In this document: positions 5,147 to 29,050 of the stretch, piece by piece
Position numbering within the stretch: position 1 is the first letter of the stretch
How the letters are laid out: each line of letters opens with the position of its first letter
DNA from: Candidatus Caldarchaeum sp.
GTDB taxonomy: Archaea; Thermoproteota; Nitrososphaeria_A; Caldarchaeales; Caldarchaeaceae
NCBI GenBank assembly: GCA_038832005.1
Contig: JAWBJZ010000008.1
Coordinates: 1 to 32,000, forward strand
DNA: 32,000 nucleotides
Reading direction: 5' to 3'
Translations under genes and position numbers: made by a program
Notes under the pieces: generated by a model
What the model was told of the DNA's origin: nothing
Databases searched by the model: none
The model's input: only the letters and a program-made list of their open reading frames with translations

Positions 5147-5512
5147 ATGATGGACGATGAAATGTACGAGAAAATTAAAAAAATTTTTGACCAGCTCGCA
5201 GCGGAATCAGAGGAAGGCGCGGCTGTTCTTGTGGAAGGCGTAAGGGATGAGCGTGTTTTGAGGATGATTGGTTTCAAGGGAAGGGTGATTCTTGCAAGCC
5301 GTTTACGCGGCGAAGTGGAGAGGATGCCGAAGAAGGTGATTCTGCTGCTGGACTTTGACCGAGAAGGGTTGAAGAACATGAAAAGGCTGGCGAAGACGTT
5401 GTCATCCGCAGGCGTCAAGGTTGATGACAGCTATCACAAAAGACTGAGAATCTTGAAAAGGTATGGAATAACCACCGTCGAATCTCTTCGAAGCCTCCTA
5501 CCCACCAGCTAA
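5147..5512 (+). CDS. Small Toprim-domain protein
   Basis: 121 aa. Conserved Toprim glutamate in VLVEGVRDERVL and the DxD motif in VILLLDFDREG. This is the archaeal small-primase-like Toprim arrangement. Confidence 0.7.
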   Translation: MMDDEMYEKIKKIFDQLAAESEEGAAVLVEGVRDERVLRMIGFKGRVILASRLRGEVERMPKKVILLLDFDREGLKNMKRLAKTLSSAGVKVDDSYHKRLRILKRYGITTVESLRSLLPTS

Positions 5513-5517
5513 CGGTA

Positions 5518-5868
5518 TTATTTCTTCAGCAACGCGGCGAAGATTGAGTTAAGCTCTTGAGCCGCGAAGACGTCGCCCTTTATCTTGATACGGCCTGAGA
5601 AGAATGCTTTGACCGCGTCCAGCTCCCCCTTCAAAATCGATACAAGGTCCTGGTGTGTTGACTCTATCGAGGCGGATGGGTTGGGGTGGAGGCCTTCGGT
5701 GACCGTCAGCCCTCCGGCGGTTGAATGAATGTAGAAGGCTTTTCCGTCGCTTGGCTTGAACTGGACGACCTTGTTCCATCCAGCAGCCTTCTTAAAGGCA
5801 TCAGGATTTGTTTTGACAGCTTCTACAAGCCTCTGTGCATGCATCAGCGCCTCGTCAGCGGACATCAT
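5518..5868 (-). CDS. SCP2 (sterol carrier protein 2-like) domain protein
   Basis: The C-terminal 116 aa of the 220-aa track ORF: MMSADEAL...FFSGRIKIKGDVFAAQELNSIF, the typical SCP2 ending. The longer ORF would overlap the acyl-CoA synthetase gene on the other strand. The TATA-like GTTTATACATC at 5913-5923 favours ATG 5868 (alternative 5898). Confidence 0.75.
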   Translation of the reverse strand: MMSADEALMHAQRLVEAVKTNPDAFKKAAGWNKVVQFKPSDGKAFYIHSTAGGLTVTEGLHPNPSASIESTHQDLVSILKGELDAVKAFFSGRIKIKGDVFAAQELNSIFAALLKK

Positions 5869-5946
5869 CAAAACCTGTGAAAGACGGCTAATAAACATGT
5901 CGCATCCAAAAAAGTTTATACATCTTATCATCCAGCTCTGCCGAGG

Positions 5947-7542
5947 ATGTCTGACCGTCTCGACGTGGTTGAGCAAGGGATGTTGTGGAAGATTCCCGAG
6001 CGTTTTAACGTAGGCTCTGCTGTTCTGGAGAACGATGGCTCGCTGCCAGCCCTCGTGTCCGTTGACGTGAACGGCGGCGTTGCAAAATACACCTTCCACG
6101 ACCTGAGACGGTTCTCCAGCATGGTTGCCAACGGGTTGCGAGATTATGGTGTTGGACGGGGTGACAGAGTTGTTCTGCATCTTCTACAAGGCGTAGAGCT
6201 TGTCGGATGTCTGCTGGCTGTTTACAGGCTTGCAGCAATCGCCGTGACAGTGCCTGCTCTGCTGGGAAGCGAAGCCGTTGAATACCGTGTGAAGGATAGC
6301 GGCGCAAAAGCCGTGATAGTTGACCAAGCTCTCAAACACAAGCTTTCAAACATCAACACAGAACAAACCATGATTTTTGTAGCCAACGGCGGGGGTGGAG
6401 AAAAGACGTATGGCCTTGAAGAGCTCATGGGAGGCTCGGCTTCGTTCAGCGACGTTGTAACATCATCCGATGAAGCAGCACATATCTTCTACACATCCGG
6501 CACCGAGGGGCCTCCGAAAGGCGCTGTCCACGCCCACCGCTGGATACTAACCCACATACCTTGCTTTAAGCTGGGGTACGACAACGGGCCAAGAGAGGAT
6601 GATGTTTTCTGGACCCCGGCTGACTGGGCTTGGATAGGCGGGTGTGGAAACCTGCTTCTCACAGCACTCCTCTTCGGCAGGCCCGTCGTTGCCGTCAGGA
6701 GGCTGGGTAGGTTCGACCCAGCCAAGGCCTACGAGGTTATGGAGCAGTTCAAAATCACATGCAGCTTCATCCCACCCACGGCTTTACGGATGATGAGACG
6801 CTTCGACCACGAGCCGTTGAAGCATTACGGTCTCTCGCTAAGGGCTGTGCTGAGCGGCGGAGAGCCTGTCACGGCGGAGGTCGTCGATTGGGGGCGGAAA
6901 GAGCTCAACGCATCCATTAACGAAACCTACGGCCAGACAGAGGCAAACCTGTTGACGGCGAACTCGGCTGCAGCGGGAATACTGAAACCCGGCTCCGTCG
7001 GAAAACCCGTCCCAGGTCATGTCATACAAATCCTCGACGAGGCTCTTAGGCCTTTGCCTGCAGGTGTTCTGGGCCACATAGCTCTCAAGCTCCCCGACCC
7101 GTCAGCTTTCCTCGGCTACTGGAGAAACCCCGAAGCCACAGCCATGAAGATGAGAGGAGGCTATCTGCTTACGGGCGATTTGGGTTGGATGGATGAAGAT
7201 GGGTTTGTCTGGTTCAAATCGAGGGCCGACGACCTAATAAAAACCTCGGGCTACAGGCTTTCACCTTGGGAGGTGGAGCAGGCTATCAACAGGCATCCAG
7301 CTGTTGAAGAATCCGCCGTCATAGGCGTCCCCGACCCCGAAAGATACCAAGCGGTTAAAGCCTTCATAGTCCTCAAGCAAGGGTTTGAGCCATCCACGCA
7401 GCTTGTCGAAGAACTATGCGAAGCAGTCAGAAAAGCCGTCGGACCACATGCAACCCCGAGAGACGTGGAGTTCGTTAAAGAGATACCTAAAACCGCAACG
7501 TTTAAGCTGAAGCGGTCTGAGCTGCGGAAAAAGCTGGGGTAA
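5947..7542 (+). CDS. AMP-forming acyl-CoA synthetase / ligase
   Basis: 531 aa. AMP-binding motif IFYTSGTEGPPKGAVH, then ETYGQTE, TGDLGWMDEDGFVWFKSRADDLIKTSGYRLSPWEVE, and the C-terminal KTATFKLKR lysine. Confidence 0.9.
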   Translation: MSDRLDVVEQGMLWKIPERFNVGSAVLENDGSLPALVSVDVNGGVAKYTFHDLRRFSSMVANGLRDYGVGRGDRVVLHLLQGVELVGCLLAVYRLAAIAVTVPALLGSEAVEYRVKDSGAKAVIVDQALKHKLSNINTEQTMIFVANGGGGEKTYGLEELMGGSASFSDVVTSSDEAAHIFYTSGTEGPPKGAVHAHRWILTHIPCFKLGYDNGPREDDVFWTPADWAWIGGCGNLLLTALLFGRPVVAVRRLGRFDPAKAYEVMEQFKITCSFIPPTALRMMRRFDHEPLKHYGLSLRAVLSGGEPVTAEVVDWGRKELNASINETYGQTEANLLTANSAAAGILKPGSVGKPVPGHVIQILDEALRPLPAGVLGHIALKLPDPSAFLGYWRNPEATAMKMRGGYLLTGDLGWMDEDGFVWFKSRADDLIKTSGYRLSPWEVEQAINRHPAVEESAVIGVPDPERYQAVKAFIVLKQGFEPSTQLVEELCEAVRKAVGPHATPRDVEFVKEIPKTATFKLKRSELRKKLG

Positions 7543-7544
7543 CG

Positions 7545-7550
7545 TTTTTT
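7545..7550 (+). terminator. Oligo-T tract after acyl-CoA synthetase
   Basis: TTTTTT begins 3 nt after the TAA stop (7540-7542). Archaeal terminators are typically T-runs. Confidence 0.3.
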
Positions 7551-7555
7551 ATCAA

Positions 7556-7592
7556 CTTATGACCCCATTAGCCTGCTTATGACCCCATTAGC
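7556..7592 (+). repeat. Tandem direct duplication (17-nt unit CTTATGACCCCATTAGC, 20-bp period) spanning the start codon of the next gene
   Basis: Exact copies at 7556-7572 and 7576-7592. Each copy contains an ATG (7559 and 7579). Confidence 0.9.
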
Positions 7593-8730
7593 AGCAGACC
7601 CCTTCTCAACAGTCCCAAAAACCAGCCTCCAAGCATTCTACGACAGGGAGAATGAGCTACAGCAACTACAGCGGGCTGTGAAGGATGGGAGCAGGCTTGT
7701 TCTTGTTCTCGGCGTCAGACGCATAGGCAAGACATCGCTGATCAGAGTTGCTTTAAACCAGCTCAGCAAACCCTACGTCTTCATAGACCTGAGAGCCTTG
7801 GAATCATACGAGGACAGGTCTCTCTACAGGCTGCTGGCAGACGAGCTCAACAAAATAGTTCCGTTGTCTAAGAAAATTCTCCAGTACCTGAAACGTGTGC
7901 GCGGTGTTTCCGTTGGGAATGGGATGGTTTCCCTCGCAATCGGCAGGGATAAACCGAACATCATCAGCATGCTGAGGACGTTGGATGCTTGGGCTGCTGA
8001 CGAAGGCTTTACGTTGCCCATTGTCTTCGATGAGGCACAGGAATTACGGTTCTTTAGGGGTGGGAGGCGTCGTATCGACTTCAGAAAGATACTAGGCTTC
8101 TGCTACGACAACCTTGAAAGAACAGCCATCATACTGTCGGGCTCCGAAATAGGACTCCTCTACAGCTTCATCGGAGCTGATGACCCAAGCTCGCCTCTTT
8201 ACGGCCGCCATTACGCTGTAATCCAGCTGGAAAGACTCAGCAAAGAGAAATCTGTTGATTTTCTGAGGAAAGGGTTTGAGTACCATGGGATAAAGCCGTC
8301 TGAAGAAATCTTGGCTAGAGCTGTTGAAGAGTTTGACGGATTAATTGGCTGGCTGACGTATTTTGGGGCTGAGGCTGTGAGGCTCTACAGGCATGATGTC
8401 AGACCGACACTTCAGGAGTTGACGAGGCTCGTGCGAGCAAAAGCGGTTGAGCTCTGCGCCATCGAACTTGAAAAACTTTACTTACGCTCTCCTCTCTACT
8501 TAGGGTTGCTGGCTGACGTCGGCAGCGAGGGCAGCACTTGGTCTGAGCTGAGGATTGCTCTGGAGAAGAGGTTCAAAAGGACTGTAAGTGACCCACAGCT
8601 ATTCACACTTCTCCAAAACCTCGAAAACCTCAGCTACATCAAGAAGGACCAGGGGCGTTACAAGGTTTTAGACCCAGTCACGGCTGAGGCGGCTAGGATG
8701 CTGCTTGACAGAAGGCTTCGCAGACCATAG
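7579..8730 (+). CDS. Archaeal ATPase family protein (Arch_ATPase / DUF234-type AAA+)
   Basis: 383 aa. FYDRENELQQL followed by Walker A LGVRRIGKTSL and Walker B IVFDEAQEL, with a C-terminal winged-helix-like tail. This is the typical archaeal ATPase layout. Confidence 0.85.
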   Translation: MTPLAADPFSTVPKTSLQAFYDRENELQQLQRAVKDGSRLVLVLGVRRIGKTSLIRVALNQLSKPYVFIDLRALESYEDRSLYRLLADELNKIVPLSKKILQYLKRVRGVSVGNGMVSLAIGRDKPNIISMLRTLDAWAADEGFTLPIVFDEAQELRFFRGGRRRIDFRKILGFCYDNLERTAIILSGSEIGLLYSFIGADDPSSPLYGRHYAVIQLERLSKEKSVDFLRKGFEYHGIKPSEEILARAVEEFDGLIGWLTYFGAEAVRLYRHDVRPTLQELTRLVRAKAVELCAIELEKLYLRSPLYLGLLADVGSEGSTWSELRIALEKRFKRTVSDPQLFTLLQNLENLSYIKKDQGRYKVLDPVTAEAARMLLDRRLRRP

Positions 8731-18347: not shown

Positions 18348-19082
18348 GTGGGGGCTGCTGTGGAGCCTTTTTATCCAAAGGTCGAGTGGCATGTTCTCGT
18401 GGAGACGGTTCATGCTCTACCTCTTTACGCAAGTCACAAAGCCTACGTCCGCGACAAGATACTTCTCAGCAAGCCGGACATCACGGTTGAGGAGCTTGTC
18501 AGCAGGCTTGGGATGACAAGCGGGGAGGCGATGGTCATCCTCTGGGAGCTGAGGAAAACCGGCGGCGAAGTTCTTCAAATGCTGAAGGTGGAAAATGTTG
18601 AGAAACCGCGTTACACTCTGGCAGCCTTAGGCGGAACCTTCTCCATGATACATGTAGGGCATATGGCGCTGCTGCTGACAGCTTTCCAGACCGCTGAAAA
18701 AGTAATCATAGGGGTCACCTCGGACGCATACGCATCCACCCTCTCCAAACAACATCCCATACCATCCTTCGAGGAGAGGACCGCCATGATCAGGCGGTTT
18801 CTCGCAGCACAGGGATGGGCTGAGAGAAGCAGAATGGTCAAGCTGGAAGACCCATACGGCCCAACGGTCGAGGACCCAACGATCGAAGCCTTAGTAGTCA
18901 GCCCTTCGACAGCCAGCAGAGCTGTGGAGATAAACTCGAAGCGGGTGGAGAGGATGATGAAGCCTCTCGAGGTGTTTGTCTGCCCTCTCGTCGTGGCTGA
19001 GGATGGCCAGCCCGTCTCATCGACACGTGTGATGAAAGGTGAGATAACGGTGGAGGGTAGGCTTGTCAGGCGTGAGAGTTAA
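18348..19082 (+). CDS. Archaeal-type phosphopantetheine adenylyltransferase (cytidylyltransferase fold) with N-terminal winged-helix-like extension
   Basis: Core from about residue 90: ALGGTFSMIHVGHMALL (GGTFxxxHxGH), VIIGVTSD, PSFEERT, LEDPYGP, IEALVVSPST, SSTRV. About 90 extra N-terminal residues include ILLSKPDITVEELVSRLGMTSGEAMVILWELRKTG. The GTG start at 18348 is uncertain (alternatives GTG 18399, ATG 18579). Confidence 0.75.
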   Translation: MGAAVEPFYPKVEWHVLVETVHALPLYASHKAYVRDKILLSKPDITVEELVSRLGMTSGEAMVILWELRKTGGEVLQMLKVENVEKPRYTLAALGGTFSMIHVGHMALLLTAFQTAEKVIIGVTSDAYASTLSKQHPIPSFEERTAMIRRFLAAQGWAERSRMVKLEDPYGPTVEDPTIEALVVSPSTASRAVEINSKRVERMMKPLEVFVCPLVVAEDGQPVSSTRVMKGEITVEGRLVRRES

Positions 19083-20008
19083 AACAACGCTGGCACAAGG
19101 TTTGTCAAAACAAGATAAGAAATCAACATGACGAACGGCGACATTTTTCTCGAAGTGTTGTGAAGAGCTGAAACGCAGAACCCGAGATAAACCGATGTCA
19201 AAGCCTTCCACGACACGTTTCTGACGAGGCTAAGCTGGACGAGAAAAGCACCCGGTTCACCTCTCACCGCCGCCACAGAAGTCAACACAACGTTTTTGGC
19301 GTTCAAGCTTGTGAAGCTGAGGCTTTCGACAGCTATTTTTTCCGGCAGCGCGTGGGGAGGGGCTGATGGCTGCGTGAGCGTGGCTTTAAGCTGCGTCGTC
19401 CTCAGAAGGCTCGTTATCTCCTCAGCCGTGTAAACACCAGACGCGACAGGCGTCTGGTTTTGATGAACCCTTGCGACATCCGCTTTCTTGGCGTAGAGTA
19501 TGTCAGCCTCGACACCAGTCCTCCCTCCTTCAGACCCAGTCCACACGAGCTTCGCGCCGTGGAAAACCACATCCGTGAACTCAACTCCGAAAACATAGTA
19601 TCTCTCGGACGGCGCGCCAGCGGCGAACGCAACGTAGACAATGTTTACAATTGCCAGTATGATGAAGAGGTGGAGCACGGCGTTGATGAAGGTTTTCATC
19701 GAAGCGCTGGATTTTCCGAAAAGCCTGCCCATAATCCTCCCCACCCCCACAAGCATCACCAACGCCACGAACACTGTCGTCAGGCTTGACATCACCAAGT
19801 AGTCGGGGCTGAAAAGACGTATCTCAGCCATAGAATACTCTCCCAAAGCAACCTCGTAGACGGTTTTGTAGCCGACGATGTAGAGTGAGACGAGTATCTG
19901 TGAGACGGCGGCTATGCTAAAAATCGTCAGGCCTTTTTTCACGTTGAGCTGCGACTCCAAGGATGTGAAGAACCGTGAGGGGTGGCTGAAGAAGGTAAGC
20001 AGGCCCAT
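19079..20008 (-). CDS. Integral membrane protein, Yip1-like N-terminus, with a ~130-aa non-membrane insert
   Basis: 309 aa. The N-terminus FFSHPSRFFTSL is followed by three hydrophobic helices. Next comes a soluble segment (YYVFGVEFTDVVFHG...), then two C-terminal helices. Confidence 0.5.
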   Translation of the reverse strand: MGLLTFFSHPSRFFTSLESQLNVKKGLTIFSIAAVSQILVSLYIVGYKTVYEVALGEYSMAEIRLFSPDYLVMSSLTTVFVALVMLVGVGRIMGRLFGKSSASMKTFINAVLHLFIILAIVNIVYVAFAAGAPSERYYVFGVEFTDVVFHGAKLVWTGSEGGRTGVEADILYAKKADVARVHQNQTPVASGVYTAEEITSLLRTTQLKATLTQPSAPPHALPEKIAVESLSFTSLNAKNVVLTSVAAVRGEPGAFLVQLSLVRNVSWKALTSVYLGFCVSALHNTSRKMSPFVMLISYLVLTNLVPALF

Positions 20009-20055
20009 CCCAGAAAGGCGGTACAGCGCGTTAATAGACCTGTATCCTGAAACGG

Positions 20056-20064
20056 CTTATATAC
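20056..20064 (+). promoter_or_regulatory. TATA-like box for the radical SAM gene
   Basis: CTTATATAC lies 24-32 nt upstream of ATG 20088, suggesting a leaderless or very short-leader mRNA. Confidence 0.35.
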
Positions 20065-20087
20065 AGGTTTTAAATCAGCACGTTAGA

Positions 20088-21809
20088 ATGGTGCAAGTTG
20101 TCTTAACCTTCGACCCCTCGCTGGGGCATAGGTTTCACGACTTCCCGCTGTTAAGCTTCCTCCCATGCGCCCCCGTAAAGTATGTTCCAAGCCCGGTTTA
20201 CCATTACCTCTCGCTTCCAGACGTGCCCTACGACCCTCATGGAAGGGCTTTGCTGGCCCCTTACGCAATAAGAAAGATAGAGGCATGCCTCGTCAAGAAA
20301 TCCAAGCTTGAAGTAGTTGTAGCACATCCAAGGTTTGTCTCCCGCTTCATCGGCCCCGACACGAAGATAATCGGCGTTAACACGATGGACCCGCTCGGCC
20401 TAGGCCCCTTGACCCTTATGTTCAACAACGCCGGCAGGGAAAAATCATGGGTGACGAAAGAGTTTGAAGAACTGATGGCCCTGATAGCTGTGGCGAAGAA
20501 AAACACGGGATGCAGGGCGAAGGTTGTGGTCGGAGGCTCCGGCGAATGGGAGTTCGAGCACAGGAAAGAGGAGATTGAGAGGCTTGGAATAGACTATGTT
20601 GTCCAAGGCGAGATGGACGACATCGTGCATCTGCTTTTCGAACAGCTGGTTGAGGACAGCCTCGACAAAACAATGTTCATGCACGGCTACAAAACAACAA
20701 CCTTCGACGCCCACGGAAGGCCTTTCATCCGCTACGTCCAAGACCCGGCGGGAAGGTTCATCTGCCGGAACCCAGCCTCGAAATACAGGCTTCCCAAAAT
20801 AGAAGACATCCCCACCATAGTAAACCCAGCCATAAGCGGCCAAGCTGAGATAATGCGAGGATGTGGAATAGACTGCGACTTCTGCGAGGTAACGACAAGG
20901 CCTCTCCGCTACTATCCGCCTGAGAAAGTGTTGGAGGAGGTGGAAGTCAACCTGAGGGGAGGTATCGACAACGCATGGTTTGTGACCGACAACCAATGGG
21001 CTTACATGGTCCGCGACCCGCAGTTCTGGCCCAACAAGGAAGCCATCTTCAGGCTTTACAGAACAGTCATGTCTAGGGTCAGCAAAGCCAACCCGATGCA
21101 CGCCACGCTGGCGCCTGCTGCAGCAGACCCTGAGGCCGCGATGGGTGTAGCCAAGATAGTTGGAGCCGGGCCTGACAAGCATATAGGTGTTCAGATTGGG
21201 CTTGAGACTGGAAGCGACAAGCTCATCCTCAAGCACATGGCTAACAAGGCGAAGCCTTTGAAAGTTGGTGTGGATGGGACGTGGGCGGAGATAGTTGTCG
21301 AAGGCCAGAAGGTTTACAACGCCGCCTACTGGATACCCGCCTACACCATAATCCTAGGACAGGAAGGAGAGACAGACGAAGACAGCTGGGATACGATAGG
21401 GCTGATAAACTACATGGCCTCGCTCAACCTCTACTTCACGGTTACGCCCATGGCTTTGGTCAACCTCGGCTCTCTCAGAGGAACCAACGTTTTGACGGAT
21501 GTTTACGCAAAGCTGACGCCAGCTCAGGCGGCGTTGATATACGTGTGCTGGCGGAACACAAAACGCATGGCCGAATCCATAGCTTTCAAAATCTCCAAAG
21601 ACAGCTTCCTGCTCCGAATCCTAACCACCACAATCCTCAACGCAGGCGCAAGGTTCTGGCTCGACAGGCTGGAAAAATATTTCACAAGGCTTGGCAAGGA
21701 GTATGAGAGGGCGATAGGCAAAGCCAAAACATACACGCACATAAAGACGATGGGAACGGACTTCAACAAACTCAGACAACAGTACAAGGCTATGAGAGTA
21801 GCTGTATAG
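20088..21809 (+). CDS. B12-binding-domain-type radical SAM protein, function unknown
   Basis: 573 aa from ATG 20088. The track's start at 19914 would overlap the divergent membrane-protein gene. It has a Rossmann-like N-terminal half (KIIGVNTMDP..., KVVVGGSGEWEF) and the radical SAM cluster motif EIMRGCGIDCDFCEV (CxxxCxxC). There are only eight Cys in total. Confidence 0.75.
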   Translation: MVQVVLTFDPSLGHRFHDFPLLSFLPCAPVKYVPSPVYHYLSLPDVPYDPHGRALLAPYAIRKIEACLVKKSKLEVVVAHPRFVSRFIGPDTKIIGVNTMDPLGLGPLTLMFNNAGREKSWVTKEFEELMALIAVAKKNTGCRAKVVVGGSGEWEFEHRKEEIERLGIDYVVQGEMDDIVHLLFEQLVEDSLDKTMFMHGYKTTTFDAHGRPFIRYVQDPAGRFICRNPASKYRLPKIEDIPTIVNPAISGQAEIMRGCGIDCDFCEVTTRPLRYYPPEKVLEEVEVNLRGGIDNAWFVTDNQWAYMVRDPQFWPNKEAIFRLYRTVMSRVSKANPMHATLAPAAADPEAAMGVAKIVGAGPDKHIGVQIGLETGSDKLILKHMANKAKPLKVGVDGTWAEIVVEGQKVYNAAYWIPAYTIILGQEGETDEDSWDTIGLINYMASLNLYFTVTPMALVNLGSLRGTNVLTDVYAKLTPAQAALIYVCWRNTKRMAESIAFKISKDSFLLRILTTTILNAGARFWLDRLEKYFTRLGKEYERAIGKAKTYTHIKTMGTDFNKLRQQYKAMRVAV

Positions 21810-21837: not shown

Positions 21838-22311
21838 TTACGGGTCGTCCAAAGCTTCAAGAAAATCTTTAAAACTGTTCAGTTTTTGCGCGAGTTTCTC
21901 AGCGTCTATTCTCTCGCCATAGCTCGGGAGCTTGTACTTCTCATACCTGTGGTTGTGTCTCAGATAGCTCAGGGCATTTTCCTTCCGCGGGTCTACGCAT
22001 TCGCCGGCCACAATCCAATCCTCAATAGCGTTCTCCACAACCACTACGTGTAAACCGTCTATCGGGCCGCAAGCCTGTTTAACGCTACTTTCTACTTCGA
22101 GAGGGGTTTTGCCGTGCGCATCGACGACCACTATAACCTTGCCTCTCATTCTGGCGGCGGCGACCGCTCTGGCCGCCTTGCTGTCAAAAGGCCCTTTCAT
22201 TGATTTTATGGAGATGCCTAGCTGGTGGGGTTCAGCTTTTTTGATTTTCTTTATCAGGTTTCTAAAGAAGCCTTTTCCGTATGCGTCTTCGCAGAAAATA
22301 GTTTTGACCAT
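21838..22311 (-). CDS. Small Toprim-like / DUF4276-RloB-like protein, candidate nuclease partner of the upstream ATPase
   Basis: 157 aa. Its ATG lies 1 nt after the ATPase stop (TAA-C-ATG). It has three acidic beta-strand-end motifs in Toprim order: TIFCEDAYGKGFF, KVIVVVDAHGK and HVVVVENAIEDWIV. The assignment rests on motif pattern only. Confidence 0.45.
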   Translation of the reverse strand: MVKTIFCEDAYGKGFFRNLIKKIKKAEPHQLGISIKSMKGPFDSKAARAVAAARMRGKVIVVVDAHGKTPLEVESSVKQACGPIDGLHVVVVENAIEDWIVAGECVDPRKENALSYLRHNHRYEKYKLPSYGERIDAEKLAQKLNSFKDFLEALDDP

Positions 22312-22312
22312 G

Positions 22313-23671
22313 TTATTGTAGGCCGTATAGCCACATTTCGCTCGGCGTCAACCCCTTCTCCTTCATCCACCGCCTGACTTGCTCGAGGTTTTCCACACGC
22401 TTGACAACGCTGCCCTCAGGTGTCCTCTCCACCAGCAAAAGGCTTTCCAAACCAGCCACGTCAACAACAACAGGCGAATGAGTGGCAACCAAGCAGAGAA
22501 CACCCGAGTTCTTCAATTCATGCACAACATATTCTAAGACTTCGCTGTGAAGAGAGTTCTCCAGCTCGTCTATGCATAATACGGAGGGCTTGCTCTCAAC
22601 CGCCGTCAGGATGTGGAGAAGCTTGTAAAAGCCGTCGGGTATGCTCGGCGGATGTATCTCAGCCCCATTAAGCTTGTCTGTTACAGAGAGAAAAACGCGG
22701 CCGTCAGCTGTTGGCTTTATTTGGATTGCAAAATCAGGGAACAGGTTTTTTAGAGCATTTTCGATTCTTTCTGGTAATGCACCGGACAGAAACATCCGGG
22801 CGATCAGTAGGTTAAGCGTTTCACCTCTTTCTGAAGGGGTATCGGGAAAACCAGCCATTATACTAGGCTCTCGAACCTTACCCATGTCAGGATGGCGGAT
22901 GAATGATACGCCTCTGAAAAACCGCCTGATATTACGAGTTACATATTGGAACAGCGAATCGTTTTTATCTTCTAGGTAAGGGCTTATCAAGTTAATCCTT
23001 GTTGCACGAGTTCTCTGCCCATTGAGCGTGAATACCATTTCACGTGTTCTTATGTCAGTTAATGCGATTTTGTTTTCCACTGCGAGGTCTCTGTAAACTA
23101 TAGGTGCAATTATGTCAAAAGATGATAATGTCGGTAATATGCTTATTGGTATTTTTTCCAAGATAACCGTCTCTGTTCCCCTAGTTATATCTTCTATTTT
23201 GATTCCATGTCTTTTTACACGGTGTATAATGTATTCTCTGACGGTGTTTATGTGTTCTTCGATGAATTGCTTCTCCTTAACAACTCTGAGTATGTCTCCT
23301 TCTCTGCTGATCATTGCTACCCCGTGTAGGTTGATTGTTTCCTGGATAGGTCTGACCATTTGTTCTATATTGGTGAAGGCCACCTCATAGGTTGCCTTGT
23401 AGTTTTCTGGGCATTCGAATTCAAGCTCGAATGTTATGGGCTTTGTTTCGTCGTTGCCGTAGACGATGTTTCTGTAGGACCACCATTCGAGATGGGGTGC
23501 GTATGGTGATGTGATGTCGCCGAGGGCTTTCTTGAGGAACTTGAAGGCTTCCAGCAGGTTTGTTTTTCCTGAGGCGTTTGGGCCTACTAGGACGTTGAGG
23601 CCGTCGTTCAGCTCGACGACCGTGTCTTTGAAGGACTTCCAGTTGCGCAGCCGTATCCTCCTAAGCTTCAT
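22313..23671 (-). CDS. ABC/SMC-like ATPase of the AAA_21/AAA_15 (OLD/AbiL/AriA-like) type
   Basis: 452 aa. IRLRNWKSFKD...LNVLVGPNASGKTNLLEAF (Walker A), then a ~300-aa insert. This is followed by PDGFYKLLHILTAV (signature-like), VLCIDELENSLH (Walker B/D-loop) and LVATHSPVV (H-loop). It has its own TATA-like CACTTATATGTG and a GGAG upstream of the ATG. Confidence 0.8.
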   Translation of the reverse strand: MKLRRIRLRNWKSFKDTVVELNDGLNVLVGPNASGKTNLLEAFKFLKKALGDITSPYAPHLEWWSYRNIVYGNDETKPITFELEFECPENYKATYEVAFTNIEQMVRPIQETINLHGVAMISREGDILRVVKEKQFIEEHINTVREYIIHRVKRHGIKIEDITRGTETVILEKIPISILPTLSSFDIIAPIVYRDLAVENKIALTDIRTREMVFTLNGQRTRATRINLISPYLEDKNDSLFQYVTRNIRRFFRGVSFIRHPDMGKVREPSIMAGFPDTPSERGETLNLLIARMFLSGALPERIENALKNLFPDFAIQIKPTADGRVFLSVTDKLNGAEIHPPSIPDGFYKLLHILTAVESKPSVLCIDELENSLHSEVLEYVVHELKNSGVLCLVATHSPVVVDVAGLESLLLVERTPEGSVVKRVENLEQVRRWMKEKGLTPSEMWLYGLQ

Positions 23672-23745
23672 CTACTCCAAGCCTAACAAGACCCCCACAC
23701 ATATAAGTGTTGGTACTTGTCGTGCTATTGAATTCCGCCTGTAAG

Positions 23746-24033
23746 CTATGGGTATTCTGCAGGTTTTGACAACGCACGCCGTGTAATGATGGTTAGGGCT
23801 ATGAAGATTGACAGGGCTGTCAGCAGCGACGCCGTGCCAATCGTGATGAAAAGCGTTGGCTCATTAGTCTCAGCCGTCTTTAACCGTATTTCAGGCGTTG
23901 CCGCTTGAACCAGTTCAGCGCCTTTCCGAGGTTCGGCAACGTATATTCCCCCGAATAGCATCAGCGCAGCCAGCACGCCCAGCAGAACAGGGGCCAACCG
24001 CCTCAACATCAAAACCTTCTCAAACCCCCTCAT
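23746..24033 (-). CDS. Small membrane protein (two TM segments)
   Basis: 95 aa. N-terminal hydrophobic LAPVLLGVLAALMLFGGIYV and C-terminal LFITIGTASLLTALSIFIALTII. It starts 24 nt after the upstream wHTH-TM gene. Confidence 0.5.
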   Translation of the reverse strand: MRGFEKVLMLRRLAPVLLGVLAALMLFGGIYVAEPRKGAELVQAATPEIRLKTAETNEPTLFITIGTASLLTALSIFIALTIITRRALSKPAEYP

Positions 24034-24057: not shown

Positions 24058-24537
24058 TTACCATGGTTTTTTCCGCCATGTGCGCACAGCTTCGTATAGG
24101 GTTGCCGCCGAGGAGGATGCTCCGAGCGCGATGACGTAGGGGTCTGGTGAGGTAAGGTGGGTGGCCAAGTAGAGTGTGGTGAAGGTTGTGAACAGGGCGG
24201 CGTAGAAAGCCATGCGGGGCAGCAGTTTTCCCCCAACCAGTATGAAGGACTGGAGAACAGATATGTCTACTTTCTCAGAAGCTGTGTAGGAGCCTTTATC
24301 GTCTTTCTGCAGCACGCCGAGCGAGTGAAGCTTCTCCAGATGGTGGTGGGCTACGCTGGGGCTTGAAAGCCCAAGACCCCTTTGAACATCCCTAACACCC
24401 ACAGGCCTTCCAGCCCTGATGACGTAGAGAAAAACGTCCAAGCTCCTGCCACGCAGCTCGGCTTCGACACGCCTCCTGTCCACACTCAAGCCTGTAAACA
24501 GCCGTGAACAGGGCTTAAAAACCTGAGCCCGTCTCAC
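24058..24537 (-). CDS. Membrane-anchored winged-helix (ArsR/MarR-like) protein
   Basis: 159 aa. The wHTH segment is LDVFLYVIRAGRPVGVRDVQRGLGLSSPSVAHHHLEKLHSLGVLQKD. Two C-terminal hydrophobic helices follow (LQSFILVGGKLLPRMAFYAALFTTFTTLYLA, YVIALGASSSAATLY). GTG start; start uncertain. Confidence 0.55.
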   Translation of the reverse strand: MRRAQVFKPCSRLFTGLSVDRRRVEAELRGRSLDVFLYVIRAGRPVGVRDVQRGLGLSSPSVAHHHLEKLHSLGVLQKDDKGSYTASEKVDISVLQSFILVGGKLLPRMAFYAALFTTFTTLYLATHLTSPDPYVIALGASSSAATLYEAVRTWRKKPW

Positions 24538-24835
24538 AAACGGAGGCGCATAAAAACTGCTTCTCCCTCGGCTATTCCCATTTAGACATCACCCTACTAC
24601 ATCTGCACCAAAGCACTCCCTTACTTTAATGATGTAGTATGGTTCAATGTCTTAAACCTATAGAACTATCTTCCGTTGCAAATCTTGTCGACGTTTTCAA
24701 CAAATATTACGCCACTCCTATCCTAAGTTGGCGGCTATCGAGATCCATGATCAATCTCTCAATCCTGCTTCGCCCTAAACGTTTCATGAATTATCCTATA
24801 CCTAAACTTTTCCAACACCTATCAAGCACCCGTCT

Positions 24836-25324
24836 TCAAGATATCCTTGGATCGCTTGTTACCAGAAATTCTCTGTTTGGATGCCCTTTTACTATATCTT
24901 TGATTGCTTTATTTTTAATCAGTTTGTTATCGAATGTGAGAAGACCACAGCATTCGGGGCTCGCTATTGAGAAGGCCACTATCACGCAGTCTATGAGTTC
25001 GAGCATCTTATCCCTATCCGCGAGATTCTGTAAGATATCTAAGAAATCGGTTAGGAATTCTCTCCTGAGATATGCGACCTCGAGTCCTCCAAACAAATTG
25101 ACGACCCCGATGTTCACCTCGTGCTTGACTAACTGTGCAACGGTCTCACAGATAACTATGAATGGTATCTTGATCTTCTGTGAAAGGCTCTTTATCACGC
25201 TATTTGCAGTAATTCGAGCGTAACGCTCGGTAGACATCTTCTTAGCTATTGAATCATATCTAAACGAGAGGTAGTTTATCAAGTAGTTTGTGTCAAGATA
25301 AAAATACTCCGGCCTGACACTCAT
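24836..25324 (-). CDS. PIN-domain nuclease (VapC-like toxin candidate)
   Basis: 162 aa. The four acidic PIN positions are in the expected order and spacing: FYLDTNYLI, FIVICETVAQL, LIDCVIVAFSIA, LLTFDNKL. Confidence 0.7.
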   Translation of the reverse strand: MSVRPEYFYLDTNYLINYLSFRYDSIAKKMSTERYARITANSVIKSLSQKIKIPFIVICETVAQLVKHEVNIGVVNLFGGLEVAYLRREFLTDFLDILQNLADRDKMLELIDCVIVAFSIASPECCGLLTFDNKLIKNKAIKDIVKGHPNREFLVTSDPRIS

Positions 25325-25337
25325 GTCCAGTAAGTGT

Positions 25338-25826
25338 TCAGACCGGCTGCTTCATAGAAAGAATCTTATAGACTTTCTCGAAGGACTCATAAGTTAGCCA
25401 GGGCTTCGACATCCTCAATATATCGTAGACCTCGTTCTCAGACATTCCTGGATATTTTTCCAAGACCATTAGTATGCTAGCAGCCGTTTCAAGCCATTTG
25501 GCATCCCTATCTTTAACAAGGCTGACGAAAGCGTCTGCATTGAATTCTGGGGGAAGACTCGCCTCCGGCAGAACTTTTTGCCGCGCAAGCTCATAGTAGT
25601 CATCTGCAAGCTCCTTGGAATATGGGCCATACATGTAGAGCGAGTAATCATACGCTAGGTCTAGACCAAGATACTTGGCTAGGAAGACATATTTCTGCAA
25701 GAGAAACCTCTTATCGAACTCCTTCTCAACGTTGAAGTCATAGCCTAACCTATCGTTTAGGAAACGAATGAAAGCAGCAAGAATACCCTTCCTCTCGGCT
25801 GAGAGATCTACAGAAGAGACCGTCAT
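25338..25826 (-). CDS. Panacea (DUF4065)/YwgA-like domain protein, candidate antitoxin
   Basis: The core FDKRFLLQKYVFLAKYLGLDLAYDYSLYMYGPYSKELADDYYEL matches the remembered DUF4065 pattern (LQK..Y......G......F....YGP.S..L). ATG 25826 is preferred (alternative GTG 25856). The stop lies 13 nt before the PIN gene's ATG. Confidence 0.45.
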   Translation of the reverse strand: MTVSSVDLSAERKGILAAFIRFLNDRLGYDFNVEKEFDKRFLLQKYVFLAKYLGLDLAYDYSLYMYGPYSKELADDYYELARQKVLPEASLPPEFNADAFVSLVKDRDAKWLETAASILMVLEKYPGMSENEVYDILRMSKPWLTYESFEKVYKILSMKQPV

Positions 25827-26185
25827 ACCCACTATCCCATAACACACACTAGCCACTGATTAATAAGTATTATACACTTTTACGCAAACTATGCATAGCT
25901 ATTATCATTTTTAGCCGAAAATGAATGAGGTATAGAGGGTCGTATGTCCTATTTCCACAAAGTTTCATGCGCCATATTTGATTGGGAGTCTCAACCGTCT
26001 TCTTCCACCTAGGGCTAAGACTGGTGTAGCTAGGAAAGACGATAGTTACGTTTTGAGCTGTGTGTTCAGCTAGCCGGAGACCCTACGCCTGTGGAAAGCA
26101 TAAAAGAGGTGATAAAAATGGCCCAAGTTAACAGAGCTGGCTAAACCGCTAAAATAATTGCTGGAGGGGCTTTGACTAGCGTTAT

Positions 26186-26422
26186 ATGGAGGCTTACAAC
26201 GCTTTTTCAGACGTGAAAACAGCTAGGTTATTCGGCTATTTCCTCATGTTCTTCGCCGCCGGCGGCGGGGTTTTCTACACAGCATGGTGGGCTGGGTTAA
26301 TCGGTTTCCTCAACCCCGAAGATGCTGTCAAGCTGGTCGCCCTGCTCGTGGCGCTCTTCATTTTCCTCGTAATCGGCTTCGTCGGGTACGTCATGGCGTT
26401 CACAAAGCCTCCTGCATCATAA
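26186..26422 (+). CDS. Small two-TM membrane protein
   Basis: 78 aa. LFGYFLMFFAAGGGVFYTAWWAGLIGF and LVALLVALFIFLVIGFVGYVMAF; codon usage looks like the rest of the window. Its 3' 148 nt overlap the tail of the convergent 889-aa ORF. Confidence 0.5.
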   Translation: MEAYNAFSDVKTARLFGYFLMFFAAGGGVFYTAWWAGLIGFLNPEDAVKLVALLVALFIFLVIGFVGYVMAFTKPPAS

Positions 26423-28923
26423 GCATCTTTAACACTGTCCAGAAGCTTTGTTATGAAGAGAAGTTCCGCAGCGATGTAAAACATCCCCAACATATGCATG
26501 TAGTGAACAAACGTTGAGAACGGCGGGTTTGGAAAATCGGTTGACGCAACTGCAGAACGCTGGCTCACATCTCTATAAAGCACAAACCCGGTCTGAGGCG
26601 GTATCGCAATCAAGCCATCAAACACGTTACCCGCCCTGTCACGATGCCTTTCAGCGAGAAAGTATGTGAAAGTTCTTCCGTTTGCAGTGTTCAGAAGAAC
26701 GATTCCGTTGCTGTAACGACGTATAAACAACGCGCCTCTTTCATCCCCTTCAACAACTTCAATACCTGTCAACGGGCTGCCGACAGGGATGTAGAAATCT
26801 TTCAGAATGTATGAAGGTGTTGTATATTCACCCTCACCCCCTCTGAGCGCGACGTATGTCTTTGGCTTGTTGACGAGATACAGGGAGGCTATGACGAAGT
26901 TGAACCGTCTCCGAACATCCTCAGGGACAAGCCTCGGGTCTTGATTCCATTGTTCAACATAACCAGCGGGCACGACATCTACCAGGATAACAAACCTATC
27001 CTCGGGATACGCGTTTAGGACTTGAAACTGTCTGTAGAGCAGCTGGGCGTCATGGGTTCTGTTGAATATCTGTGTAAAGTATTCGATGAAGACTCCGTCA
27101 TAGTCAAATCTCAGCAGAAGCTCGAACCTTTCGTCTCTATACGTCCCAATGTTCGCTATGATTTTACGTTCAGGACCCGTGTCTATAAGCTCTGATTTCA
27201 ACCGGCTGAGCATGTTTTCCAAAACGGTCTTTCTTACGGAGCGGTCTGGATACTTTGACGGCGGCATCCCATCCATGTTCCATAGATAAATGAAGTTCGG
27301 AAGATTGTCGTGGAAAAGGATGGGCGACAGTAGAGGATTGTTATAGCCTGCGTAGGCATGAAGCTTTTCAATACCTTTCAGAGCCGCGTCAACAACATCC
27401 TTGCGGCCAATGTCCAGCAGAAACTCACAGTACTTTTCTCTGACGATGTAGTATCCGGAGCCGTCTTCCCGTGGATATTTTGAAGACGATGCTGAGCTTA
27501 GAAACCATTCGCTGAAGACCTTCTTGTAGATTGTTCTGTAGGGTCTGAACTCGTAGACAGGTTTGCTGCCGTTCCAGCGAAGCATGCAGGGAGGTGTGTT
27601 TGAGCTGTTTCTAACGCTGACGACGAGAGACGGGTCGTTGAAGTAGTAGAGGCTGACAACCTGTGGGTTTATTCCTTTGACGTATGTGTTGTAGTAACCG
27701 CCTCCGAGCAGCAGGTCGTATTTCTGAGCCAGCTCCAGAGGCTCGGTCATCACGACTGTCCCATGTATTGCAGCAAGCTTGAAGTTGTTTCCAACCCTGC
27801 CAACCAGCGGGAGACGTTTCTCAGGCTCCGTGCGCAAAACAAAATCATCAAGCCAGAACGTTCCCATACAGGACCTCACGCATGTGAAAACTATTAGGAC
27901 CCTCGCAGCCGTTAGGTTTGCGGGAGCCTCAGCAGTGAACGAGATTTTCGTCCAGAATGGTGTCGAGTTCCCCGACCTCAGCACGTAAAGGGGTGAGAGA
28001 TAACGCTCGTTGCCCGTGTTGTCGCGGACAATGAAGTAGAGCATAACCTCATACTGGATGTTTGAAATCTTCTCTCCTGTTTTGACTTGGAAGCTGAAGA
28101 CAACCTTGTCGCCTGGAAGCGGGTAGAAGACCGAGTATCTTGGGTTTTTCGACCTGACAACGTAGGACGAGAGGATCAGCCTTGTTTCCGGGCCTGATTC
28201 GTTATCCCTTTTTATAGTGATTTTCTGGCTGCCGGCGCCTGAGACGTATTCTTGGAAGTCTATGGATGCTTCCACGCTGGCTCCTTTGGAGCCTGAAGGC
28301 CATGGTTGCCAGTTCCAGTAAGGGTTGAAGATGTCTGCAAAGCCCTCACGCATGTTCGCTGCGTTAGTAATGCCTGTTTCAACCTCTCCCAAGCCGCCGA
28401 AGTAGTTGCTGAGAGGGATTCCATATGGTGTCGCCGTTTCCACGACGGTGTTGGACGCGTTGCTTACAACGCTTCCACGAAAGGCTCTTACCCTGTAGAG
28501 ATAGGTTTTCTCCCTTTCAACGGACGCGTCTGCGAAGCTGATAGCGTTGGGGGCTGTCCTACCTATGGCTGAGAAGACCTTACCGTCCTCGCTCCTCTCT
28601 ATCACGAAGCCATCCTCGCCCACCGAGTTGTCCCGCCAGCTGAGCACAATCTGTCTAAAGTCGGCGGCCTGCACTCTCAAATCTGACGGCGGAACCAGCT
28701 GGCTAACAGTCTCTGTCGTCCTCCGCACCACAGTTGTTGTCACAGCTGATGTAAGGTATGTTTTGACAGTTGCCGTGGTTGTGCTTAGAGAAGTCGTTGT
28801 TACGGTTTCGGTTATGGTTGAGTAAAAGGTTTTGTTGTTCGATGTGTTGAGGGGGGTTAGCTGGCCGAGGATAAAGCCGGACAAAACGGCTGAAAAAAGC
28901 AGAAACGCCACCGCCGGCCTCAT
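26275..28923 (-). CDS. Large secreted / membrane-anchored protein: signal peptide, Thr-rich linker, FN3 domain, beta-rich region, glycoside-hydrolase-like region, C-terminal TM
   Basis: ATG 28923 (preceded by GGTGAGGTG) is preferred to the track's GTG at 28944. The signal/anchor is MRPAVAFLLFSAVLSGFILG, followed by the Thr-rich TTTSLSTTTATV...TTTVV. The FN3 pattern is PPSDLRVQAADFRQIVLSWRDNSVGEDGFVIERSEDGKVF...YLYRVRAF. The C-terminal ~450 aa only loosely recall uncharacterised TIM-barrel GH-like families (YDGVFIEYF). There is a hydrophobic MLGMFYIAAELLFITKLL near the end. Confidence 0.6.
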   Translation of the reverse strand: MRPAVAFLLFSAVLSGFILGQLTPLNTSNNKTFYSTITETVTTTSLSTTTATVKTYLTSAVTTTVVRRTTETVSQLVPPSDLRVQAADFRQIVLSWRDNSVGEDGFVIERSEDGKVFSAIGRTAPNAISFADASVEREKTYLYRVRAFRGSVVSNASNTVVETATPYGIPLSNYFGGLGEVETGITNAANMREGFADIFNPYWNWQPWPSGSKGASVEASIDFQEYVSGAGSQKITIKRDNESGPETRLILSSYVVRSKNPRYSVFYPLPGDKVVFSFQVKTGEKISNIQYEVMLYFIVRDNTGNERYLSPLYVLRSGNSTPFWTKISFTAEAPANLTAARVLIVFTCVRSCMGTFWLDDFVLRTEPEKRLPLVGRVGNNFKLAAIHGTVVMTEPLELAQKYDLLLGGGYYNTYVKGINPQVVSLYYFNDPSLVVSVRNSSNTPPCMLRWNGSKPVYEFRPYRTIYKKVFSEWFLSSASSSKYPREDGSGYYIVREKYCEFLLDIGRKDVVDAALKGIEKLHAYAGYNNPLLSPILFHDNLPNFIYLWNMDGMPPSKYPDRSVRKTVLENMLSRLKSELIDTGPERKIIANIGTYRDERFELLLRFDYDGVFIEYFTQIFNRTHDAQLLYRQFQVLNAYPEDRFVILVDVVPAGYVEQWNQDPRLVPEDVRRRFNFVIASLYLVNKPKTYVALRGGEGEYTTPSYILKDFYIPVGSPLTGIEVVEGDERGALFIRRYSNGIVLLNTANGRTFTYFLAERHRDRAGNVFDGLIAIPPQTGFVLYRDVSQRSAVASTDFPNPPFSTFVHYMHMLGMFYIAAELLFITKLLDSVKDAYDAGGFVNAMTYPTKPITRKMKSATSRATSLTASSGLRKPINPAHHAV

Positions 28924-29050
28924 CTCAGCCACCTCACCGAACACGCTGGATTTAAGAGATATGGCGTACGTATAGTTAGAACATGTGTTGGTTTTTCTCT
29001 AGAAGCATGCTTGGATGAAGACGTCAGGGTTAATATTTACAGGTTTTTTG

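Follow-up and report, generated by a model that had tools for sequence, protein, structure and literature searches.

A linked ABC ATPase and small Toprim-fold protein in a Caldarchaeum genome: a probable, mostly archaeal two-gene conflict module

What is the function of a tightly coupled pair of genes, one encoding an ABC-type ATPase and the other a much smaller protein, in the genome of Candidatus Caldarchaeum sp. (assembly GCA_038832005.1)? The pair is located on contig JAWBJZ010000008.1, of which the first 32,000 nucleotides (nt), hereafter called the window, were analyzed. Modules that combine an ABC ATPase with a Toprim protein, i.e., OLD, Gabija, PARIS, AbiL, HEC-01, and MADS3-4, constitute a major branch of prokaryotic immunity that is understood only in part, and, to our knowledge, almost all experiments on them have been done in bacteria. 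A preliminary description, made from the sequence alone, had proposed the pair as a candidate immunity module in the style of a split OLD, AbiL, or PARIS. From the evidence presented below, it is likely that the pair is a two-gene conflict module of an ABC ATPase and a stand-alone Toprim nuclease, of the type found in HEC-01, AbiL, and Mad3-Mad4 of MADS and, more distantly, in PARIS.

The two open reading frames (ORFs), both starting with ATG, encode proteins of 452 and 157 amino acids (aa) and are separated by a single nucleotide (...CAA TAA C ATG GTC...). They were found where the preliminary description had placed them, on the minus strand, which it had left unmentioned (Table 1). Neither is a chance ORF, given 203 homologous clusters for the small protein (E ≤ 1e-3) and 243 matches for the ATPase (E ≤ 1e-10) among the candidates scored. 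Upstream of the ATPase gene, a TATA-like CTTATAT is present 30-36 nt, and a GGAG 4-7 nt, before the ATG; both are consensus-like strings only. The central part of the pair, said before to be AT-richer than its surroundings, indeed has a guanine-plus-cytosine (GC) content of 0.43 at positions 22600-23600 vs. 0.50-0.55 in the flanks.

An AlphaFold2 model of the small protein, built on its family alignment, has a predicted local distance difference test score of 94.5 and a predicted template-modeling (TM) score of 0.89. The model consists of a β-α core, with strands at residues 2-7, 33-37, 57-64, and 87-92, followed by helices. A Foldseek comparison with the PDB returned 6njx, 6nk8_A, 6njw, 6njv, 6nk8_B, 6p74, and 8jq9 at ranks 1-7 (probability 0.98-1.00, TM-score ~0.5), which are the C-terminal nuclease regions of the OLD proteins of Xanthomonas and Burkholderia, of Thermus OLD, and of GajA; unrelated Rossmann-like folds came next. 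The best match among viral models was an RloB-like protein. As predicted by the model, the small protein has an OLD-like Toprim fold in a D-x-H variant. Its conserved residues are found in the same order as the two-metal site and the lysine of Bp OLD. By this order, E8/D9 may correspond to E400/E404 and D64/H66 to D455/D457 of Bp OLD, E97 would parallel the metal-B ligand E508, and K125 is a candidate counterpart of the catalytic K562. The residues are embedded in the segments IFCEDAYGKGFF (aa 5-16), VIVVVDAHG (aa 59-67), and VVVVENAIEDW (aa 89-99) and in a C-terminal motif. In an alignment of 125 family members, to which the conservation and profile counts given for this family refer, D64 and E97 are invariant, and E8, D9, F15, Y123, K125, L128, and F147 are conserved in at least 90% of the sequences.

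A word-indexed search with the small protein yielded three homologues, and the clusters mentioned above, nearly all of 150-190 aa, were retrieved by an exhaustive HMMER search with the alignment of these three. At 50% identity, the family thus amounts to ~200 clusters in a set of 1.84 billion representatives. Its members have a median length of 166 aa, i.e., ~85% of the DUF4276 and RloB profiles (192 and 195 positions), and the effector is consequently not half the size of such partners, as had been supposed; to call it unusually compact was too strong. At the family level, 39 of the 125 members match DUF4276 and 18 match RloB (E ≤ 0.1). The DUF4276 matches extend over the N-terminal as well as the C-terminal part of the profile, and one member (P0301) reaches 31.2 bits, which is above the threshold. 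The partner in one Thermoproteota locus (L007), a 185-aa protein next to an ATPase with 52% identity, scores 34.6 bits for RloB, above the gathering threshold, and two members from Thermococcus are named "DUF4276 family protein" in UniRef. Among the PADLOC models, mad4 is matched by 45 of the 125 members (best 1.5e-8) and the commonest HEC-01B model by 33; further matches are to ATPase-Toprim_I-B and, weakly, to AbiLii, the latter with seven members for one model and one for the other. No match to DUF4435 or AriB was found for the small protein, nor among the top 25 families listed for its relatives in Pfam and PADLOC. A search of PDB sequences with the family profile gave no significant match (best E = 0.14; a topoisomerase fragment at 0.18 covers the DAD motif only). 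Since DUF4276 and RloB are placed in the Toprim superfamily in the literature, the family can be assigned to the DUF4276/RloB Toprim group, of which it is a divergent, somewhat shortened branch. The resemblance to Toprim, DUF4276, and RloB that had been proposed from short motifs was thus recovered, by the OLD-family matches of the model and by the profile matches of the family. With few exceptions, the named hosts of this family are archaea, and most of them are (hyper)thermophiles. One member (P0128) is annotated as originating from a metagenome-assembled genome (MAG) of the bacterial candidate division WOR-3; perhaps, the family is not strictly archaeal, or this contig was mis-binned.

The ATPase matches Pfam AAA_21 (PF13304) with 2.7e-23 and 83.9 bits (cut-off 27) over residues 25-404 and the complete profile (1-304 of 304) and AAA_15 (PF13175) with 2.2e-16 and 60.9 bits (cut-off 32.1), passing both thresholds. 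The AAA_21/AAA_15 layout recognized earlier was thereby confirmed, and all of its motifs were located (Table 1). Matches to the AAA_23 and SMC_N heads were also found. In PADLOC, the best models were PDC-M25A (3e-28), HEC-01A (3.6e-28), AriA (1.7e-24), and AbiLi (1.2e-23); altogether, six HEC-01A models matched, with values from 3.6e-28 to 5e-23 (including 7.8e-27 and 1.2e-25). The closest PADLOC profiles of the ATPase are those of the ATPases of defence candidates and known systems. The NCBIfam MAD3 model scored 73.4 bits with a cut-off of 420, with its best stretch in the C-terminal lobe, and the RecF and Rad50 models of the same collection remained far under their cut-offs, with matches confined to the Walker A head. 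Among PDB sequences, only the head and the C-terminal lobe were matched, best by PtuA and Ts OLD, followed by retron ATPases, Rad50, and GajA.

The GC dip described above maps to residues 101-250 of the ATPase, which constitute an insertion domain. Here, the GC content at third codon positions is 0.28-0.48 vs. 0.60-0.76 in the catalytic core. Of the 47 amino-acid differences to an ATPase homologue with 90% identity, 33 fall within this domain, the ratio of non-synonymous to synonymous divergence (dN/dS) is 0.47 vs. 0.20 in the core, and the nucleotide identity to the relative L004 (see below) locally drops to 75% at positions 23282-23381. Positive selection was considered and rejected, as the dN/dS of the insert is above that of the core but below 1. 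The pattern fits a faster-evolving, possibly mosaic specificity domain.

The linkage of the two genes is strict. In all 25 loci of relatives that were examined, a gene for a 157-185-aa protein directly follows that of the ATPase, so the adjacency expected earlier for other genomes was seen throughout; in 14 of these loci (L001-L014) the product belongs to the same family by profile. Of the small protein's three close homologues, each is encoded directly after an AAA_21 gene (3/3), and, in nine additional loci (L090-L095 and L097-L099), a 160-177-aa gene, as called by the source annotation, is located directly 3' of the ATPase gene (9/9). Both in the window and in every relative, a stop codon separates the ORF of the ATPase from that of the Toprim protein. 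The 14 loci span Caldarchaeum, other Thermoproteota, Desulfurococcaceae, two Methanoperedens, a Stygiolobus in which the small gene is apparently frameshifted, and an unclassified archaeon; five of them (L010-L014) are the true relatives that could be used from a scan of genome contigs with the ATPase alignment, in which the remaining hits were generic Walker A matches. Hosts of the further loci include Thermococcus thioreducens, T. zilligii, Pyrococcus kukulkanii, Ignisphaera aggregans, a Heimdallarchaeote, and two metagenomic contigs. Overall, the sampled loci cover Aigarchaeota, other Thermoproteota, Thermococcales, Methanoperedens, and Heimdallarchaeota. In Stygiolobus sp. CP850M (5950-7653), the Toprim gene consists of two overlapping fragments, next to a shorter ATPase; apparently, the pair is decaying to pseudogenes.

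The distribution is patchy, as illustrated by Thermococcus, in which close homologues of a Thermococcus protein are present in only about nine named species, and the genomic contexts vary between lineages. In Ignisphaera, the pair is located among MazE, AF2212-like, and ATPase_2 genes, and in L007 it adjoins a head-tail provirus. In this region of a Thermoproteota contig (L007/L008, 11254-21168), the ATPase with 52% identity and its 185-aa partner are found beside a provirus-like block with genes for a terminase, a tape-measure protein, and an HK97 gp10-like protein.

The recent history of the pair can be read from two other Caldarchaeum MAGs (L004 and L005), which are syntenic with the window and contain, in this order, MetRS, HAD, a variable segment, a helix-turn-helix (HTH) protein, a 90-aa protein, the ATPase, the 157-aa protein, and a convergent radical SAM gene. 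The nucleotide identity to L004 (positions 5350-7290) is 90-100% from ~23780 to ~21840, whilst it is 65-86% in the flanks; the step is sharp, and its borders enclose the putative promoter region and the two genes. Because the synonymous divergence (dS) is 0.04-0.14 in the pair vs. 1.5-2.0 in flanking genes (Table 1), the replacement of the cassette, whether by recombination or by horizontal transfer, is far younger than the split between the two lineages. The cassette moved in one piece, and neither the HTH nor the membrane protein gene came with it. A fixed core-genome context with a housekeeping phyletic pattern, which would have spoken against the preliminary description, was not seen: the distribution is patchy, the contexts vary, and the cassette is younger than its flanks.

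Upstream of the cassette, two genes are found, one for a small membrane protein and one for a winged-helix regulator of HTH_IclR/LexA-like type whose C-terminal part is hydrophobic. Genes for an HTH protein and a 90-95-aa membrane protein precede the ATPase gene in all close relatives (L002, L004-L006). They were considered as parts of the module, and this was rejected, as they diverge at the rate of the flanks and are absent in distant relatives. The adjoining segment is a variable hotspot: in L004 and L005, it contains an N6_N4 DNA methyltransferase gene, ~1.4 kb 5' of the pair, together with a 72-aa gene, and, in the window, an 889-aa protein together with a 172-aa/PIN pair. The 889-aa ORF has no match in Pfam, PADLOC, or NCBIfam. 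The gene for the PIN-domain protein (6.6e-5) is directly preceded by the 172-aa gene, which has weak matches to PDC-M19A (6e-6) and the DarG region; both lie in a low-GC stretch (0.42-0.44) and likely constitute a toxin-antitoxin-like pair. On the other side, the radical SAM gene (B12-binding, TIGR04013-like, 2.6e-12) is convergent to the Toprim gene. Its 631-aa ORF probably starts later, as the protein is 573 aa long in relatives, and the 5' extension overlaps a 309-aa ORF on the opposite strand. In relatives, Csx1 and Cas_NE0113 are encoded a few kb past the radical SAM gene.

Table 1. Features of the two-gene cassette and its surroundings in the window, with dS to the corresponding genes of L004
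Feature	Position	Strand	dS	Basis or remark
Exchanged two-gene cassette (upstream region, ATPase gene, Toprim gene)	21840..23780	-		Identity step to L004 and low dS
Intergenic region 5' of ATPase gene, 74 nt	23672..23745	-		Read from sequence; same 74-nt spacing in L004, L005, and L006
TATA-like string CTTATAT	23701..23707	-
GGAG string	23675..23678	-
ABC-type ATPase AAA_21/AAA_15, predicted sensor/regulator, 452 aa	22313..23671	-	0.14	Pfam, PADLOC, homologues
Walker A/P-loop GPNASGKTNLLEA, aa 30-42	23546..23584	-		G30, N32, G35, and K36 invariant in 45 homologues
AT-rich, fast-diverging insertion domain, aa 101-250, candidate trigger-sensing region	22922..23371	-		GC at third codon positions, divergence
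ABC signature-like PDGFYK, aa 345-350	22622..22639	-		D346, G347, and K350 invariant in 45 homologues
Walker B/D-loop LCIDELENSLH, aa 365-375	22547..22579	-		D368, E369, and S373 invariant in 45 homologues
H-loop VATHSP, aa 395-400	22472..22489	-		T397, H398, S399, and P400 invariant in 45 homologues
Toprim-fold protein, divergent DUF4276/RloB-like, predicted metal-dependent nuclease effector, 157 aa	21838..22311	-	0.04	Model, Foldseek, family profiles
Putative Toprim glutamate E8 and D9 (CED after strand 1)	22285..22290	-		E8 113/125, D9 118/125
Putative DxD equivalent D64-A-H66, after strand 3	22114..22122	-		D64 invariant
E97, start of helix after strand 4 (EIEEW/IEDW motif)	22021..22023	-		Invariant in 125 sequences
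C-terminal helical-region motif Y123-E-K125-Y-K-L128-P129	21925..21945	-		Y123 and K125 each 123/125; L128 121/125
Membrane protein, 95 aa	23746..24033	-	0.60
HTH (winged-helix) regulator	24058..24537	-	1.56
Variable segment	~24540..28990
PIN-domain protein	24836..25324	-
172-aa protein	25338..25856	-
889-aa ORF	26275..28944	-
Radical SAM protein	19914..21809	+	1.47
309-aa ORF	19079..20008	-
MetRS			1.99
HAD			1.50

How such a pair might work is suggested by known systems: it is best read as a sensor/regulator ATPase with a predicted metal-dependent Toprim nuclease as effector, a logic that has been shown for PARIS and proposed for AbiL and for Toprim toxins that are neutralized by ATPases. 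For complex formation, sensing, nuclease activity, substrate, and protective effect, we infer the following scheme. The two genes would be co-transcribed and probably translationally coupled. The ATPase, which is probably oligomeric, may keep the small Toprim nuclease inactive, and its insertion domain (aa ~101-250) may sense a cue associated with infection. ATP binding or hydrolysis would then release or activate the nuclease, which could cut nucleic acid, either DNA or tRNA, in a metal-dependent manner via E8/D9, D64/H66, E97, and K125. This cleavage would halt either the replication of the virus or the host cell, by abortive infection or in a toxin-antitoxin-like manner.

Several observations weigh against this interpretation. 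The small protein of the window itself has no match to the Pfam profile DUF4276 (PF14103; threshold 30.2 bits) at E ≤ 1 and none to RloB (PF13707; threshold 31.5 bits), and it scores 12.9 bits (E = 0.17) with OLD-like_TOPRIM (PF20469), under the threshold of 23.2 bits. Its PADLOC matches are restricted to HEC-01B models, are weak (2.3e-4, 1.2e-3, and 2.3e-3), and lie mostly within the N-terminal Toprim core. At position 66, 81 of the 125 family members have D, 29 have E, and 14 have H, so that the D-x-H form of the window protein is a minority variant. Overall dN/dS is below 1, the insert included, and no real relative of the pair was found on the viral contigs of IMG/VR that were searched. 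Many loci have housekeeping genes as neighbors and are not part of defence islands, and a HEC-01 representative protected E. coli against none of the phages tested (Payne et al., bioRxiv 10.1101/2024.01.29.577857). The last two points could be taken to indicate a housekeeping pair, in which an SMC/RecF-like ATPase and a Toprim protein function in DNA repair, comparable to RecF-RecR or Rad50 and its nuclease, or in RNA maturation like RNase M5. In two Thermococcus species, the pair is located between PTH2 and TruD, with ribosomal proteins nearby; in L099, it directly follows RadA and is also flanked by pyruvate kinase; and, in L094, DnaG, Pelota, and Cdc6 are its neighbors. Moreover, the N terminus of the ATPase matches the heads of RecF, Rad50, and SMC, and some sources label homologues as RecF. 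However, these matches comprise only the ~45-residue Walker A head and are far under the family cut-offs, the closest profiles are of defence-associated families, and the pair is patchily distributed (see the Thermococcus species and the ~200 clusters above) in contexts that differ between lineages. In addition, judged by synonymous sites, the flanks are more than ten-fold older than the cassette, which fits an exchangeable accessory module and not a core gene. A housekeeping function is, therefore, unlikely.

The recent exchange would also be in line with a purely selfish addiction cassette, in which a Toprim toxin and an ATPase antitoxin persist by post-segregational killing and horizontal spread without antiviral benefit. 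ATPase-neutralized Toprim_OLD toxins have been validated as toxin-antitoxin pairs, PARIS shows type II toxin-antitoxin behavior, the cassette adjoins the PIN-type toxin-antitoxin-like pair in the window, and the lack of protection by the HEC-01 prototype would be explained as well. Yet, a 452-aa ATPase with fully conserved catalytic motifs and a diversifying insert appears costly for a simple antitoxin and rather resembles sensor ATPases, and the viral contigs searched did not contain the pair. Moreover, in the ATPase plus Toprim class, a toxin-antitoxin-like role and one in defence can go together. A purely selfish element is, overall, unlikely. The pair could also be a fragment of a larger system that needs the HTH protein, the small membrane protein, or a methyltransferase or restriction component, comparable to RloB in type I restriction-modification or Mad3-Mad4 in MADS. 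The invariable presence of the HTH and 90-95-aa membrane protein genes before the pair in close relatives, the N6_N4 methyltransferase gene upstream of it in some of these, the mad4 matches of the family, and the weak MAD3 match of the ATPase are in line with such an arrangement. This is very unlikely, however: the HTH (dS 1.56) and membrane protein (dS 0.60) genes evolve at the rate of the flanks, are outside the exchanged cassette, and are absent from the loci of distant relatives, the window lacks the methyltransferase, and the MAD3 score of 73 bits is remote from the cut-off of 420. A self-contained conflict module that combines an ABC ATPase with a Toprim nuclease, hence, remains the probable identity of the pair. 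The earlier designation as a candidate immunity module is supported, apart from the size claim, and the architecture is that of catalogued ATPase/Toprim systems; many loci, however, are found among housekeeping genes, and the immune function itself is presumed, with indirect evidence from the variable neighborhood, the patchy distribution, and the recent exchange.

The combination of an ATPase with a Toprim protein has already been catalogued (HEC-01, AbiL, MADS3-4) and does not constitute a new principle. The locus does document a coherent, mostly archaeal subfamily that has largely been missed by Pfam, with a very small effector, strict linkage, and clear signs of exchange as a cassette and of diversification in the presumed sensor domain. 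It provides a defined target for testing ATPase/Toprim systems in archaea, e.g., in Thermococcus, and the sequences of the family could improve the DUF4276, RloB, and HEC-01B profiles. More tentatively, the pairs may form a clade of their own among minimal ABC-ATPase/Toprim immune modules, mostly of thermophilic archaea, in which the ~165-aa effector would approach the minimum size of a self-sufficient OLD-type nuclease (with the catalytic residues E, D-x-D/E/H, E, and K) and the AT-rich, rapidly diverging, possibly recombining insert would be the virus sensor. This proposal is rather doubtful; if true, the pair could, given the cultivated Thermococcus hosts, become the first abortive-infection system of the OLD/PARIS type in archaea that is amenable to experiments, possibly with tRNA as its target.

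Among the known systems, PARIS had been suggested as a model for the pair, and it does share the split sensor ATPase and Toprim effector. Its AriA model gives a partial match to the ATPase (1.7e-24), variable insertion sequences of its ATPase have been proposed as the site of trigger recognition, and AriB, once released from the AriA scaffold, cleaves tRNA. The behavior of PARIS is that of a type II toxin-antitoxin system; AAA/ABC ATPases that neutralize Toprim_OLD toxins have been validated experimentally as toxin-antitoxin pairs, and NetFlax is a precedent for an ATPase antitoxin/sensor with a Toprim effector. However, AriB (~35 kDa) contains a DUF4435 domain, for which, as for AriB, the window protein has no match, and phages or satellites are frequent carriers of PARIS, whereas pairs of the window type are absent from the viral contigs searched. 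For lack of DUF4435, membership of PARIS was rejected: what stands of the PARIS-style proposal is the split logic and an effector of about half the size of AriB.

The OLD family (P2 Old, Ts OLD, Bp and Xcc OLD, and GajA) provides the solved structures that are nearest to the small protein and has a related ABC ATPase head. The order of the residues E, DxD-like, E, and K is shared, but the TM-scores are only ~0.5, and the helical region is much smaller in the small protein. Moreover, OLD proteins are fused single polypeptides, which is the criterion of OLD Classes 1-3, whereas two split genes are present here. AbiL of Lactococcus is likewise bicistronic, with an ABC ATPase and a small OLD-like Toprim effector, and has a known abortive-infection phenotype. 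Its AbiLi model matches the window ATPase (1.2e-23); in contrast, the window small protein matches neither AbiLii nor RloB, 7-8 of the 125 family members match AbiLii weakly, and AbiL is bacterial and plasmid-borne.

Mad3-Mad4 of MADS, listed by Burman et al. among the ABC ATPase plus Toprim systems, likewise combines an AAA15/21 ATPase with a DUF4276-type Toprim protein, and mad4 is the PADLOC model matched by the largest number of family members. The small protein of the window, however, has no mad4 match, its ATPase scores far below the MAD3 cut-off, and neither a methyltransferase nor another mad gene is present in the window. HEC-01, a PADLOC candidate system with a Toprim metal site described as conserved with that of Bp OLD (Payne et al., bioRxiv 10.1101/2024.01.29.577857), has the same gene order and architecture, i.e., an ABC ATPase (HEC-01A) and a TOPRIM protein (HEC-01B). 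By individual profile scores, the A component of the window matches strongly and the adjacent B-type protein weakly (2.3e-4). The HEC-01B profiles are 192-204 positions long vs. the family median of 166 aa, and HEC-01 is found embedded in Hma systems, of which no genes surround the pair in the window. On this comparison, the pair is a mostly archaeal member of the known class of ATPases with a stand-alone Toprim protein, closest to HEC-01 and the DUF4276 type.

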